Origin: an uncultured Bacilli bacterium
GTDB taxonomy: Bacteria > Bacillota_I > Bacilli_A > RF39 > UBA660
DNA: 49,554 nucleotides
Direction of reading: 5' to 3'
Assembly: GCA_947632405.1 (NCBI GenBank)
Contig: CANRPE010000004.1
Span: 1-49,554 of the forward strand
Below are positions 44,882 through 49,236 of the stretch, in pieces. The notes under the pieces were generated by a model. That model worked only from the letters and a program-made list of their open reading frames with translations, had not been told where the DNA came from and did not search any database. The stretch's first letter is position 1. Each line of letters opens with the position of its first letter. Position numbers and translations under genes: made by a program.

Positions 44882-46252
44882 TCAATTTTTTCCAGTAGTT
44901 ATTCTTCGTTTTATTTTTCTTTTTTTATTATAATTTTTTTTATTTTGGAAATCATTATAATTAGCTAATTCCAAAGCCTTATCGTAAAGTTGTTGTTGAT
45001 CACTATATTCCTCGATATAAGTATTTATTAATGTATCTGTTAAAATTTGTTGATTTAACTGATAACTATCTGAATTTTCTTTTTGTTGGTTTTGCCTAAC
45101 AAATATTAAACATTTTGCCAAATCTTCGATTGTTATTTCTCTTTCTAGATATGGTTCTAAATCTTGATAATAAAATAAACATTTTTCTTTACCATCTATA
45201 AAATTTTTTAAACAATTATTTTCCATTAATTGACAAATATAATCTGCTTTCATTCCAAATAAACTATAATAATTTGCAATCGAATAAATAAGCTTACTTG
45301 CCTTTAAATCTTGAATATTATTAAGTTCATTTATAGCTTGTTCTGGATTATTATTTTTATCAAAAAAAGGTGTTAATGTACTAATTAGATTATCTTTATC
45401 AATTATCTTAAAAAAAGCTTTTGTTCGAGCAAAATAACGATAATTTTGGTAAGTACTATCTTCTTTTTCTTCTTTAGACTTAGCATAAAAATCAAAATAT
45501 AAGATAGAATTAACATTATATTTTTCATCATTTACATAAACAAAATTTCTATAATATTGTTTTTTAGAATTATTTTGTTTTAAGATATCAATAGCTGAAT
45601 TCATCCCTAATTTTTTAACTACAAAATCAAAAATAACAGTAGATTTTATTATATTATTTTTTTCTTTTTCTAAGTCATTAGTAATATTTTGAGAATTTAA
45701 ATTATCTAATTGGTCTTTTTCACTTATATTTCTTTTAATTTCATCATATAAGTAAAGTAATTGTTCTAATGGGGATAATTCAATTACTTTTTCAAATATA
45801 GTATTAATTAATTGAATCATTTTAATAAATTCTTGATAAGTAATTATTTGATTTTGGATTTTTATTTTTAAAAAGGTACTAAAATCTTCTTTTAAAAATA
45901 AATCTAACTTATCATAATCATTTGGAGTAACAACTAAAATTGGTTCTTGAGATTTTAAACTAGGATTATTTTTTAAAAATTTAATTGTATTTTCGATATT
46001 ATTTTCATTACTACAAATTTTAATAGTTTGAGCATTTTTAATTTGAAATTTTTCTAAATCTTTTGAATCATAAAAATAGCCTTTAGAACGAAAAGCATTT
46101 CGAACTAATTCATATACTTTTTCTTCTTGATATGTTTTTTCTAATGTTTCTGTAGGATCTATATATAAAATAAGATTATAATCATCAATTAATTGATATT
46201 TATCAGTACTAGTTTCATTTTTTTCAGATTTTAAAAAAATTTCTAAATTCAT
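44882..46252 (-). CDS. hypothetical protein, gene 3 of unknown trio (possible Cys-less transglutaminase-like scaffold, basic tail)
   Basis: 456 aa. Its SD AAGGAG is embedded in the 3' end of the upstream gene. Region aa 155-260 is LSPLEQLLYLYDEIK ... STVIFDFVVKKLGMNSAIDIL ... YYRNFVYVNDEKYNVNSILYFDF. Confidence 0.65.
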   Translation of the reverse strand: MNLEIFLKSEKNETSTDKYQLIDDYNLILYIDPTETLEKTYQEEKVYELVRNAFRSKGYFYDSKDLEKFQIKNAQTIKICSNENNIENTIKFLKNNPSLKSQEPILVVTPNDYDKLDLFLKEDFSTFLKIKIQNQIITYQEFIKMIQLINTIFEKVIELSPLEQLLYLYDEIKRNISEKDQLDNLNSQNITNDLEKEKNNIIKSTVIFDFVVKKLGMNSAIDILKQNNSKKQYYRNFVYVNDEKYNVNSILYFDFYAKSKEEKEDSTYQNYRYFARTKAFFKIIDKDNLISTLTPFFDKNNNPEQAINELNNIQDLKASKLIYSIANYYSLFGMKADYICQLMENNCLKNFIDGKEKCLFYYQDLEPYLEREITIEDLAKCLIFVRQNQQKENSDSYQLNQQILTDTLINTYIEEYSDQQQLYDKALELANYNDFQNKKNYNKKRKIKRRITTGKN

Positions 46253-46257
46253 ATGTT

Positions 46258-48186
46258 TTACTCCTTACAACTTTTTCTTTTTTGATAATTCTGATTAGAA
46301 TTAGATAAAATGTCACATATCATTCTAGCTTCAGTTTGATCAATTATCTTATTTTTTAATAAAGTTTCAGCCTGTTCATGAACAGATATAGTTGGTTTAT
46401 TTAATCTTTTTAATTCATTTAATACTTTATTTTTAGAAATAATTACTTGGTCAAATTGATAGGTTCTTAATGAATTTGAAATATTTATCGTTTCTAAATA
46501 TTTTATAAATTCATTTACAGATAAAGTATTTTCTTCTAATTCAAGATGTGGAGATAAATCTAATAAATATTCATTCATATCTTGCTTCATAATTTTCATT
46601 TTATCATGATTTAAAATAGCAATAATTTCTTCTGTAGATGCTAGTGGAATATTTAGACGATTTAATACCATAATTTTTTTATAATCATCTAAAGAGTAAT
46701 TTAATAAAGCTAAATCTTCATTTAAATTATCCTCACAACCTAATTCTAGCACAACATCTATTTTTTGTGCAAGTGCATCTTGACTAATAAAATCATAAGC
46801 ACTAGTAACTTTAAGAGTCGATATTAACTGATATTGTTCGACAATATTTATATTTTTATCTATTAAATCGTGATTATCTAATAAAATTGTTTCCATTTTA
46901 TTAATATGTGTTGCTGCTAAACCCGCATCAATTAAAGTTTGAATATTATTACATAAATTTTGATATTTTTTATTTTCACTTGAAGAATCAAAAATATCAA
47001 CATTAGCTTCTAAAAATGATACATTAAGATAACCTTTATTAATAAAATTAATTATTTCTTCTACTCTTTCTAAACTAGTTATATTAACTATTTTTAGCAA
47101 ATAATTTGGATCAGTAATATTAATTTTTTTGAGATTATCTAAAATTTTTTCTAAATCAGTAACGCTTACAGTAATATTTATTTGATCATCAGCAACTAAA
47201 ATATTATATTTTTGTAAAACTTTTTTATAGTTGTTAATTGAATTATTAATTAATCCTTCATATTTATTTAATGCATCTTTACATAAACTAAGATTATTTT
47301 GATATATATGAGTAAGTATAAGTTTTCTAATTTCTAAATTAGAGATTTTTAAAATAGCAGCAGGAAGTGTCAGTATATTATCATTATTACTATTACTATC
47401 TATCCAATTTTTTAATTGAAGATAATAATTAAGTTCTTTTTTTGATTTATTTTTTTTGCTTCTTTCGTCTGCTAATATAGTCTGAGAATATGATCTAATT
47501 AAATAAACAGCATCCGTAATATTTTTAGGTACTTCGATACTATTAATAATTTTTTTCAAATTTTTTTTCGATTCTTTTGTTTCTTTTATAAAATCATTTT
47601 TTAATTCAGCAATATTTTTAATTCTGTCAATTTCATCCTGTTTAACCATAATAGAAAACAAAAAGTTAAAAGATTTTTTAGATGATTCAGGATAATCATG
47701 AACTAGTTTAACTAACTTAAATAAAGGACTCTTATTTTTATAGCTATATTCACATATAAGTACAATAGACGCAATGACATCTAAATTTTTAAGAATATTT
47801 GAATCTGAAAAATCAAAATTTAATTGTTTGATTAAACCATTATATTCAAATTTATTTATTATATCATCATAATAAGAACTTGATGCTATTTGCAGAAATG
47901 AATTGTAAAGTGTTTTAAACTCTATAACTTGTGTTTGTGTAAATATATATTCATTTTGATAAATAATATTTTTTAATATATTAAAGTCTAAATCATTGCA
48001 TATACTTCTAAAATAAATGATAAACAAATTAATTAGTTCATTTTTATCAATATCATATATATTTTGAAGATTATTATTATTTACAAAAGAATCAATAAGG
48101 TCTACTTCTTCATTTTTATTTTCAATATCTTTTTCTAATTTTAATTGTTCTTCCTCAATTTTTTCAAGAATAGTTTGATTAAACAT
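46258..48186 (-). CDS. hypothetical protein, gene 2 of unknown trio (all-helical, ~30-aa repeats)
   Basis: 642 aa, SD GGGGG. No P-loop, HTH or TM segment recognised. Seven ~30-residue repeats lie between aa 320 and 530. Confidence 0.65.
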   Translation of the reverse strand: MFNQTILEKIEEEQLKLEKDIENKNEEVDLIDSFVNNNNLQNIYDIDKNELINLFIIYFRSICNDLDFNILKNIIYQNEYIFTQTQVIEFKTLYNSFLQIASSSYYDDIINKFEYNGLIKQLNFDFSDSNILKNLDVIASIVLICEYSYKNKSPLFKLVKLVHDYPESSKKSFNFLFSIMVKQDEIDRIKNIAELKNDFIKETKESKKNLKKIINSIEVPKNITDAVYLIRSYSQTILADERSKKNKSKKELNYYLQLKNWIDSNSNNDNILTLPAAILKISNLEIRKLILTHIYQNNLSLCKDALNKYEGLINNSINNYKKVLQKYNILVADDQINITVSVTDLEKILDNLKKINITDPNYLLKIVNITSLERVEEIINFINKGYLNVSFLEANVDIFDSSSENKKYQNLCNNIQTLIDAGLAATHINKMETILLDNHDLIDKNINIVEQYQLISTLKVTSAYDFISQDALAQKIDVVLELGCEDNLNEDLALLNYSLDDYKKIMVLNRLNIPLASTEEIIAILNHDKMKIMKQDMNEYLLDLSPHLELEENTLSVNEFIKYLETINISNSLRTYQFDQVIISKNKVLNELKRLNKPTISVHEQAETLLKNKIIDQTEARMICDILSNSNQNYQKRKSCKE

Positions 48187-48197
48187 ATATATACCCC

Positions 48198-49181
48198 CTA
48201 ACTCTTTTTATATTCAAAATTTCCTTTATCATTAACATTTAAAATATTATTTAATTCTAAAGTATATTCATTTTGAAGTTGTCTAAATTCTGGATTATTT
48301 AAATTTTCTTTTAATAGTTCCTTTTGTGATTCATAATTCTTAATTTTTAAATTTAGAGAATCTAAATAACCTTTATCTTTATCTGATTTTTTGATAAACG
48401 CTGTAATTAAAGCATAATCATGTGGACCAATTTGATCAAATACAACTCTAATTTTATAATCTTTTACTTCACAAACACCTGAATTTAAATTATTAATACT
48501 TTTAAATCTTCTAATATTTTTTAATCTTCCATCTTCAATTGATGCAAATAAATCTTTGAATCCTTCATAGTATTCTTGATCTATATCTTTAAGTTCCTTT
48601 AAAATTCTAATATTGCCACTACTAGTTGGTACAAAAATAAAATTATTTTTAATTGGTTCATGTCCTTGCTCTATTTCATTAATTGTTTCAAGAGTTGAAA
48701 TTATTTTAATTTTTTCTTGATTTAATAGTATTTCATCTTTAAATTCTTCATAATCTTCTTTTGTTAAATTAGCTTTTTCTTGATTTAATAATTCTTCAAT
48801 TTCTTTAATATTTTTTAATAATTCCATTTTTATTCTTAAATTAATATTATAATAATTTACATTTTCTTTAGATGGTAATATATCTGCAATAGATAATTGT
48901 AAATTACTAGTAGAAGCAAGATTATTAATTTGTGAAAAATAATAATCAACTTCTTTTTCAAAATCATCATCTTTTTCTGTTTCAAATAATTCTGGCATTT
49001 GAGTAATTGAATTTAAAGTTTCTACTACTGGTTGTTCTTTTTCAGAATTATCTGAAAATTTAATTTCTAATTGTTTAATTTCATCTTTTAACTTTAGATA
49101 TTTTTTTGTATTTTCTTCAATAGCATTTACTAGCATTTCTTCACTAATATTATCTAAGTCTTCTAAAATTACTAATTCCAT
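48198..49181 (-). CDS. hypothetical protein, gene 1 of unknown trio (acidic coiled-coil N-half, RelE/Gp49-like C-half)
   Basis: 327 aa, SD AAGGGGGA. The C-terminal pattern FIFVP..(helices)..SGVCEVKDYKIRVVFDQIGPHDYALITAFIKKSDKDKGY resembles HigB/Gp49-type toxin folds. Confidence 0.65.
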   Translation of the reverse strand: MELVILEDLDNISEEMLVNAIEENTKKYLKLKDEIKQLEIKFSDNSEKEQPVVETLNSITQMPELFETEKDDDFEKEVDYYFSQINNLASTSNLQLSIADILPSKENVNYYNINLRIKMELLKNIKEIEELLNQEKANLTKEDYEEFKDEILLNQEKIKIISTLETINEIEQGHEPIKNNFIFVPTSSGNIRILKELKDIDQEYYEGFKDLFASIEDGRLKNIRRFKSINNLNSGVCEVKDYKIRVVFDQIGPHDYALITAFIKKSDKDKGYLDSLNLKIKNYESQKELLKENLNNPEFRQLQNEYTLELNNILNVNDKGNFEYKKS

Positions 49182-49207
49182 AATAAATCCCCCTTATACG
49201 GTGTAAT

Positions 49208-49236
49208 ATTATACTATAATCTTTTTATTTTTGCAA
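49208..49236 (-). promoter_or_regulatory. near-consensus sigma-A promoter TTGCAA-17-TATAAT driving the unknown three-gene operon
   Basis: The reverse complement reads TTGCAAaaataaaaagattatagTATAAT, located between xseB and the 327-aa gene. Confidence 0.6.

Follow-up and report, generated by a model that had tools for sequence, protein, structure and literature searches.

A candidate toxin/partner gene pair with a RelE/HigB-type domain and a large helical partner in uncultured gut Bacilli

RNases of the RelE type belong to the Barnase/EndoU/Colicin/RelE (BECR) superfamily. One of them, Cami1, is a CARF-RelE fusion that acts as a CRISPR-associated, ribosome-dependent RNase and a switchable translation-arrest effector. 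BECR domains are also common tips of polymorphic toxins, and NsnC, the effector of the anti-phage system Menshen (NsnABC), consists of a variable N-terminal domain followed by a BECR effector domain (PMC12065111). Prokaryotic mTERF-like DNA-binding repeat proteins, named pTERF, have been reported from metagenome-assembled genomes (MAGs) of gut Bacillota (PMC11417379). Here, we analyze a locus in a 49,554-nt stretch of DNA from an uncultured Bacilli bacterium (contig CANRPE010000004.1), hereafter the window, to whose whole length all coordinates refer. Three minus-strand open reading frames (ORFs), named g1, g2 and g3 in order of transcription, lie there between xseB and spoIVB. We propose, with a probability of roughly one half, that g1 and g2 form an undescribed two-gene toxin/partner module with a RelE-type effector in uncultured low-GC gut Bacilli. 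To our knowledge, almost no toxin-antitoxin or defense biology has been described for these bacteria.

The computed basis of this proposal consists of fold, residue conservation, gene pairing, frame coupling, family size, distribution and evolutionary rates. The RNase activity and toxicity of the g1 product (G1), its neutralization by the g2 product (G2) and the trigger are predictions that follow from reading these data together.

The G1 and G2 proteins

An earlier note on this DNA, made from the sequence alone, described ORFs of 327, 642 and 456 amino acids separated by gaps of 11 nt (g1-g2) and 5 nt (g2-g3), and we reproduced these coordinates. The features of the first two genes are as follows.

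48198-49181, minus strand: g1, a 327-amino-acid RelE/HigB-fold fusion protein, putative toxin/effector (ORF list, AlphaFold2, homologues)
48672-49181, minus strand: acidic helical N-terminal domain of G1, residues 1-170, putative G2-interaction or regulatory module (AlphaFold2)
48366-48659, minus strand: RelE/HigB/Gp49-like BECR domain of G1, residues 175-272 (AlphaFold2 and Foldseek)
48201-48365, minus strand: C-terminal two-helix extension of G1, residues 273-327 (AlphaFold2)
46258-48186, minus strand: g2, a 642-amino-acid all-helical partner, putative neutralizer/sensor (ORF list, AlphaFold2, family search)
47497-48186, minus strand: hypervariable, acidic N-terminal half of G2, residues 1-230 (comparison of identity and charge)
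46552-47196, minus strand: helical-repeat region of G2, residues ~331-545, presumed mTERF-like array (Foldseek, helix pattern, conservation)
46261-46551, minus strand: small C-terminal α/β domain of G2 (AlphaFold2, alignment)

Homologues of G1 fall into 57 clusters of 287-337 amino acids, all without a name. The AlphaFold2 model of G1, built with 35 homologues, has a mean predicted local distance difference test (pLDDT) score of 81; within the BECR domain the score is mostly ~90, with dips to ~75-80 near residues 221-240 and 261-270. In this model the N-terminal domain contains helices at residues 14-45, 70-86, 94-101, 110-134 and 141-166 and a disordered linker at 45-70, the secondary structure over residues ~179-265 runs β-α-α-β-β-β, and the C-terminal extension, which is variable among homologues, forms helices at 270-292 and 297-314. 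When the model was compared with the PDB using Foldseek, the best matches were Streptococcus pneumoniae HigB (6af4/6af3; expectation value (E) 4e-4, probability 1.0). Further matches included Mycobacterium tuberculosis RelE1 and RelE2 (3g5o, 9g12; template modeling (TM) score normalized to the target 0.72-0.78), Methanocaldococcus jannaschii RelE and ParE2; target TM-scores for HigB and RelE proteins ranged from 0.65 to 0.78 overall. Cami1 (8phb) was a weak match at rank 15.

Scans of the three window proteins against Pfam, NCBIfam and PHROGs gave nothing significant. The sole significant family match of the window copy of G1 was to the PADLOC model for NsnC, at the C-terminal end (E 3.6e-6); this model (PDLC03894), which carries no curated threshold, was matched by 20 of 35 members of the g1 family, with a best E of 4.7e-8. 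Pfam Gp49 stayed below threshold when G1 domains were searched in isolation (matches in 2 of 10, scoring at most 21.0 bits; cut-off 23.9), and sequence-profile searches of the PDB with the g1 family or its isolated C-terminal domain recovered no RelE or HigB, only coiled-coil or low-complexity noise. The RelE/Gp49-like fold at which the earlier note had hinted is nonetheless borne out by the AlphaFold2 model, the HigB and RelE matches in Foldseek and the NsnC matches in PADLOC.

Among 74 distinct copies of G1, tandem paralogues included, the near-invariant residues are E238 (73 copies), K/R240 (73), R245 (74), K264 (74), K/R265 (71) and Y272 (72), and this conservation holds although overall identity is just 30-50%. 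By eye and by register, these residues appear to fall at K52/K54, R61, K80/R81 and Y87 of Escherichia coli RelE. The mapping to catalytic residues is by register alone; with hhalign, no alignment was obtained between the g1 family and E. coli RelE.

The N-terminal domain of G1 varies far more, with a mean identity to the window copy of 29% compared to 51% in the nuclease domain. It is acidic (median net charge -12; -21 in the window copy) and had no family or fold match. At two loci, an ORF of 190 or 191 amino acids that matches the N-terminal domain only (L017:5424-5996 and L023:5409-5984; hidden Markov model (HMM) positions 1-161, E ~1e-13, without the RelE domain) adjoins the 5' side of a full g2 copy, and a complete g1-g2 pair follows. 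Its position in front of g2 suggests that the N-terminal domain works with G2; the ORF itself may represent a variant without the nuclease or a copy in decay. A distant G1 relative of 502 amino acids (L069:6900-8408) has a G1-like C-terminus (HMM positions 80-275, RelE-like domain included), a longer and different N-terminus and no adjacent g2.

The g2 family is large. By exhaustive HMMER search it comprises 354 clusters at 50% identity; 297 of these have E <1e-10, and lengths are almost always 600-650 amino acids. A word-based search had retrieved just two homologues. No NCBIfam match was found for G2. Across 51 family members Pfam gave no consistent match, PADLOC and PDB sequences gave none, the Pfam mTERF model matched none of the 51, and neither a helix-turn-helix (HTH) nor a ribbon-helix-helix (RHH) was consistently detected. 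Typical noise in the PDB profile searches with g1 and g2 was myosin, NusA and TRMT10C.

The AlphaFold2 model of G2, built from 95 homologues (mean pLDDT 92), is all-helical apart from a small C-terminal α/β domain with strands at residues 554-556, 575-578, 581-584 and 599-601 and helices between them. This domain carries the conserved motif R-T-Y-x3-G-x2-I-S-K-N-K-V, in which Y576 and S584 are nearly invariant. The top five Foldseek matches of G2 were all mTERF proteins, namely MTERF4 (4fp9_B, 7odr_y, 7o9k_A2) and MTERF1 (3mva, 5crk), and these were its only confident fold matches. Four of the five had probabilities of 0.99-1.0 over 229-266 aligned columns but E values of 0.06-0.1 and target TM-scores of 0.32-0.52; the fifth, 3mva, had a probability of 0.66 and a target TM-score of 0.23. 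The best matches by TM-score were MTERF4 chains, two of them from large-subunit assembly intermediates. The helix pattern and conservation would place the match at residues ~331-545, and profile autocorrelation revealed no clear sequence periodicity. These results agree with the earlier suggestion of a helical repeat array of the nucleic-acid-binding type, in the sense that the G2 model appears mTERF-like in fold, which falls short of showing that G2 belongs to the mTERF family.

The repeat region of G2 is acidic, with a median isoelectric point (pI) of 4.7 and a median net charge of -12. It is preceded by a short basic middle segment (residues 231-330) and, before that, by the N-terminal half, which has a median pI of 5.0 and a mean identity to the window copy of 16%. 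The acidity of the repeat region disfavors a canonical nucleic-acid-binding groove, and a role in protein binding or nucleic-acid mimicry would fit it no less well.

Pairing, genomic context and evolutionary rates

In a scan of one genome per GTDB species, g1 was present in 63 species, with one locus per genome. All are uncultured MAGs, labeled as Bacilli, Tenericutes, Mycoplasmatota or Erysipelotrichaceae, plus a few that are probably mis-binned, and their sources are human, rabbit, ruminant and chicken guts. In 68 of 69 loci, the gene directly after g1 is a g2 homologue. In three gene-called loci the two frames share 1 base or lie 1-4 nt apart, and gaps range from -1 to 11 nt. The earlier note had described the three genes as one operon; g3, however, is confined to the subclade of the window and its homologues elsewhere lie apart from the pair. 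The conserved unit is therefore g1-g2, not the trio.

The commonest position of the pair is between addA and rplU. Immediately 3' of it lie rplU-prp-rpmA in 33 of the 63 species, with addA also just 5' in 16 of these 33; addA is 5' of the pair in 5 further species, the pair occupies the spoIVB slot in 5, and 20 have other contexts. In those other contexts its housekeeping neighbors include rpsJ, rplC, rplD, rpoB, rnr, smpB, trmD, miaA, yqfD and an LD-carboxypeptidase gene, and no integrases, transposases or defense genes were found among them. A defense-island reading was dropped, given housekeeping neighbors and an xseB-spoIVB slot that otherwise holds genes for a sortase, a peptidyl-prolyl isomerase (PPIase) or a DUF5684 protein. 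Tandem g1-g2-g1'-g2' arrays occur in at least 8 species, and their copies are deeply diverged, with identities of 21-36% in the G1 N-terminal domain, 47-59% in the nuclease domain and 15-24% in the N-terminal half of G2.

The pair evolves faster than its surroundings. Among three close relatives of the window locus (L001, L009, L010), flanking proteins are 87-99% identical (SpoIVB 97-98%, MutS 95-98%), whereas G1 is 51-57%, G2 37-47% and the g3 product (G3) 46-50% identical, and the pattern for the pair is repeated in L037 compared to L046 and in L026 compared to L028. Most of the variation falls in the N-terminal domain of G1 and the N-terminal half of G2, and conservation is highest in the nuclease domain. 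Nei-Gojobori estimates of the ratio of nonsynonymous to synonymous substitution rates (dN/dS) for g1 and g2 are 0.10-0.22 between close relatives and 0.21-0.48 between more distant relatives, compared to ~0.03-0.15 in the flanks. Both genes are thus under purifying selection, weaker than that on the flanks, and gene-wide positive selection was rejected. In several comparisons dS is higher for g1 than for the flanks (0.72 versus ~0.4, 1.1 versus ~0.5, and at least 1.1 versus 0.06-0.9), which hints at older alleles or allele exchange, though dS is near saturation in this AT-rich DNA.

Two other genes in these genomes vary in a similar manner. Between mutS and nusB, a few kb from g1-g3, lies a gene for 285-311 amino acids without a Pfam match (L001:5023-5880 and the equivalents in L009 and L010) whose products are 39-45% identical compared to 90-98% for the neighbors, with a dN/dS of ~0.58. 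In L019 and L021, the product of a gene between rpmA and obg (~154-173 amino acids) is 43-45% identical where the flanks are 94-99% identical, with a dN/dS of ~0.7; its position is that of spo0B in Bacillus subtilis. In comparisons of L009 with L010 and of L001 with L010, dS is 0.9-1.9 across g1-g3, 0.4-1.2 across the upstream flank and just 0.05-0.14 in spoIVB, the DUF421 gene and the gene after it. This sharp fall from g3 into spoIVB points to a recombination breakpoint at the g3/spoIVB boundary.

Expression signals, g3 and the xseB-spoIVB interval

The remaining features of the locus are the third gene and two short signals.

44882-46252, minus strand: g3, a 456-amino-acid transglutaminase-like protein whose active site is degenerate, added in one clade (ORF list, alignment)
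49208-49236, minus strand: σA-type promoter-like site TTGCAA-17-TATAAT 5' of g1 (promoter scan, 10 of 12 matches)
49238-49260, minus strand: short hairpin AGAAG/CTTCT plus a T-run across the xseB stop codon (read by eye)

The genes flanking the three ORFs are 70% and 78% identical to L001 genes annotated Exonuc_VII_S and Peptidase_S55, respectively, which supports their earlier identification as xseB and spoIVB. Within the ORFs, there is no P-loop or hydrophobic segment in any of the three products, as had been noted, and the Shine-Dalgarno sequence AAGGAG is indeed formed by the final two sense codons of g2, right before its TAA stop. A Shine-Dalgarno sequence GGGGG precedes g1. The claim that the genes have their own near-consensus promoter fared less simply. 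The TTGCAA-17-TATAAT site is the best promoter-like site of the region, but in this DNA of 20-25% GC the scan found 50 promoter-like matches where 58 were expected in shuffled sequence, so the match alone says little. The promoter gains support from conservation of the TATAAT box at the orthologous position 5' of g1 in syntenic loci L001, L009, L010 and L014, in three of which it is accompanied by a TGn extended -10 element.

The hairpin at the xseB stop falls below the criteria of the terminator scan in the window, where it may be a weak terminator of xseB; its counterpart in L001, L009 and L010 is stronger (GAAAGC/GCTTTC followed by T8). Consistent with the earlier observation, the scan found no terminator-like site between g3 and spoIVB, and the sole such site found is 3' of spoIVB, at 43813-43832. 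An Rfam search of the window gave no match, and no repeats that would mark an insertion flank the window copy of the genes.

The sequence directly 5' of spoIVB (window 44827-44881) contains the block ...AATGTAGnAAGTTTTTATGAGGTGATT and, further upstream, TTGGnAAAnTTTT. This block is kept in L001, L009, L010, L014, L015 and L040, whether g3 or g2 precedes it, which suggests that spoIVB has its own promoter or regulatory region. No σF or σG promoter could be assigned by eye in the block.

G3 was found only in the window's nearest relatives (L001, L002, L009, L010, L074 and L075), and is missing from the syntenic xseB-g1-g2-spoIVB loci L014, L015, L040 and L077. More distant homologues lie in a glycosyltransferase cluster or beside infC, with no g1-g2 nearby. 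Six of seven members of the g3 family match Pfam Transglut_core (PF01841; best E 1e-7), and the family profile matches PDB 9crn_A. The window copy is not recognized by PF01841, and is homologous by descent in view of these six matches. In the alignment its catalytic Cys has become I201 and its catalytic His Y233, with D254 retained; the orthologues keep Cys, His and Asp. The earlier description of a Cys-less transglutaminase-like scaffold is accurate for the scaffold and for the loss of the catalytic Cys; the window protein contains 5 Cys in all, and it is His that is absent (0 residues). Window G3 is probably catalytically dead, a pseudo-enzyme or the product of a decaying gene. As a separate gene, g3 entered the operon in the subclade of the window alone and stands outside the conserved pair.

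In B. subtilis, xseB and spoIVB are separated by ispA, dxs, yqxC, ahrC and recN, and the earlier note had proposed that the trio replaces this block. A metagenome scan seeded with SpoIVB (L074-L153; 44 informative loci) contradicts that proposal. The block from ispA to recN is absent from the xseB-spoIVB site throughout the lineage, with or without the trio, and the interval is variable: it is empty in L138, L139 and L142, and elsewhere is occupied by a sortase gene with a gene for a 207-259-amino-acid protein ending in G(L/M)GGK, by a PrsA-like PPIase gene with a gene for a 509-amino-acid Asn-rich repeat protein, or by the DUF5684 membrane protein gene. The interval carries the g1-g2 pair in only 2 of the 44 loci, and in five loci the pair is convergent and 3' of spoIVB. 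Nothing was therefore replaced by the trio.

At ~37800-38700, away from these genes, the window contains a very AT-rich intergenic stretch (16-18% GC) where GC skew flips from positive to negative and genes on the plus strand give way to genes on the minus strand. A convergence point resembling a replication terminus could explain this, as could plain coding-strand bias.

Interpretation and comparison with known systems

We favor the toxin/partner module because the putative toxin gene comes first, the frames are coupled, and diverged pairs occur in tandem. It is also favored because variation sits in the two N-terminal regions while residues of the active-site type are preserved. Further, both proteins are acidic outside the nuclease domain of G1 and residues 231-330 of G2, as antitoxins usually are. 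The conserved TATAAT box 5' of g1 also counts in its favor. In such a module, G2 would be made from the same transcript as G1 by coupled translation and would bind G1, probably via the variable N-terminal regions of both. The nuclease domain of G1, positioned behind its variable acidic helical domain, would be kept inactive by G2 until a trigger such as phage infection or stress, and would then cut mRNA on the ribosome, causing translation arrest. A more specific version, in which g1-g2 founds a family of immune or addiction systems with an mTERF-fold sensor or neutralizer of a RelE-type nuclease and with specificity in the hypervariable N-terminal regions, is tentative and in our view less probable than the general proposal; were it true, an mTERF-like fold would have its first functional role in a bacterial conflict system.

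Several observations weigh against a toxin/partner module. G2 is 5-8 times the size of any classical antitoxin and lacks a detected HTH or RHH, and the RelE domain of G1 carries ~170 amino acids in front and ~55 behind, extensions that might hinder its entry into the ribosomal A site. No relatives of g1 were found in IMG/VR, GenBank phages or PLSDB plasmids. The pair is a single locus per genome, mostly in one housekeeping slot from addA to rplU without integrases or defense genes nearby, and such a single-slot chromosomal distribution is unlike that of most toxin-antitoxin or defense cargo. Gene-wide dN/dS is below 1, and thus gives no direct sign of an arms race. Finally, other lineage-specific genes of these genomes, including the mutS-nusB and rpmA-obg genes, evolve equally fast, so that fast evolution alone does not prove a role in conflict.

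The main rival is that g1 and g2 are a domesticated housekeeping pair, a vertically inherited, lineage-specific core gene pair with no conflict function, whose products would act on ribosomes or RNA, for example in mRNA surveillance, ribosome assembly or hibernation. We consider this unlikely, while recognizing that much of the genomic context is consistent with it. Each genome has a single locus, which in ~38 of the 63 species occupies a conserved slot between addA and rplU-prp-rpmA-obg; elsewhere neighbors such as rpsJ, rplC, rplD, rnr, smpB, trmD and miaA function in translation or RNA metabolism; no link to mobile elements was found; selection is purifying; and the MTERF4 chains that G2 matches best by TM-score include two in large-subunit assembly intermediates. 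On the other hand, a housekeeping role does not readily account for extreme divergence where flanks are 90-99% identical, for tandem arrays with very divergent paralogues, or for relocation of the pair to positions 5' of spoIVB, convergent 3' of spoIVB, or elsewhere. Identities of 16-29% are rare for housekeeping factors inside a family-level clade, and an acidic repeat region is unexpected for an RNA binder.

Less likely still, and in our view improbable, is that G1 is a secreted polymorphic toxin, with an N-terminal trafficking domain (LXG- or WXG-like, type VII) that delivers the BECR RNase and with G2 as its immunity protein. The frequency of BECR domains as toxin tips (PMC12065111), the order of toxin and downstream partner, the tandem cassettes and the strong strain differences at a fixed locus would all be expected of such a toxin. 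Yet G1 has no signal peptide and no match to LXG or another secretion domain, secretion genes are absent from all neighborhoods inspected, and the partner is far above the typical size of an immunity protein. The pattern of conservation is also reversed: in polymorphic toxins the N-terminus is retained and the tip exchanged, whereas G1 is most conserved in its toxin domain and most variable in its N-terminal domain.

Least probable is the second role that the earlier note had offered beside the toxin-like or defense role retained here, a lineage-specific sporulation module co-transcribed with spoIVB: the missing terminator between g3 and spoIVB and the position of the pair directly 5' of spoIVB in the window's clade would suit it, but the link amounts to adjacency in that one clade, as the pair is away from spoIVB in most species, is convergent and 3' of spoIVB at some loci and leaves xseB directly beside spoIVB at others, the g1 promoter is σA-like, and the conserved block 5' of spoIVB, whichever gene precedes it, points to a promoter of spoIVB's own.

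If the toxin/partner proposal is correct, it would give a function to a sizeable unannotated family (354 clusters) and extend mTERF-like folds into bacterial toxin control. It would also add a new architecture to the RelE/HigB toxins, that of a fused effector under a very large helical-repeat partner. The bacteria concerned belong to a poorly known group whose hosts include humans, ruminants, rabbits and poultry, and the pair, with its conserved slot and extremely divergent alleles, lends itself to the question of how such modules persist without mobile elements.

Among described systems, type II toxin-antitoxin modules are one of the closest. Residues 175-272 of G1 share the fold of HigB, RelE and Gp49, with conserved Lys, Arg and Tyr that would correspond by register to the catalytic residues of RelE, and in HigBA of S. 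pneumoniae (6af3/6af4), as in g1-g2, the toxin gene comes first and the second gene is tightly coupled; RelBE of M. tuberculosis (3g5o, 9g12) offers a further comparison for the G1 fold. G1 differs in its length of 327 amino acids, which adds a 170-amino-acid acidic helical N-terminal domain and a 55-amino-acid C-terminal extension. In place of an HTH or RHH antitoxin of ~100 amino acids, the second gene encodes a 642-amino-acid helical-repeat protein, and the pair is chromosomal, restricted to a single locus and to one lineage. A classical type II system is disfavored by a partner of this size and kind, by the absence of any link to mobile elements and by the stable chromosomal slot.

Two other systems offer partial parallels for G1. 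Its C-terminal domain is homologous at the sequence level to the BECR RNase domain of NsnC, but its N-terminal domain is all-helical where NsnC has an inactive-PIN Rossmann-like fold; neither G2 nor G3 matches NsnA (ParB-DUF262) or NsnB (ABC ATPase-DUF3696), and G2 has no P-loop and no PADLOC match. Because NsnA, NsnB and the inactive-PIN domain are missing, g1-g2 is not Menshen. Cami1 shows that a RelE-fold nuclease can be joined to a regulatory domain, but G1 has no CARF domain or CRISPR context, and its regulation would come from a separate protein.

G2 and G3 also invite comparison. pTERF proteins, like G2, were described from gut Bacillota MAGs. Unlike mTERF proteins, which have a basic nucleic-acid groove, G2 has an acidic repeat region; it also lacks a Pfam mTERF match and a clear periodicity, and adds a 330-amino-acid N-terminal part and a C-terminal α/β domain. 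Orthologues and distant homologues of G3 match the transglutaminase-like superfamily and keep its Cys-His-Asp triad, whereas the window copy does neither. A fused helical N-terminal domain with a 600-amino-acid partner of mTERF-like fold is absent from Pfam, NCBIfam, PADLOC, PHROGs and the literature searched. The effector domain of G1 is of a known kind, and what is new is its architecture with an mTERF-like partner and its lineage-restricted, chromosomally anchored distribution.

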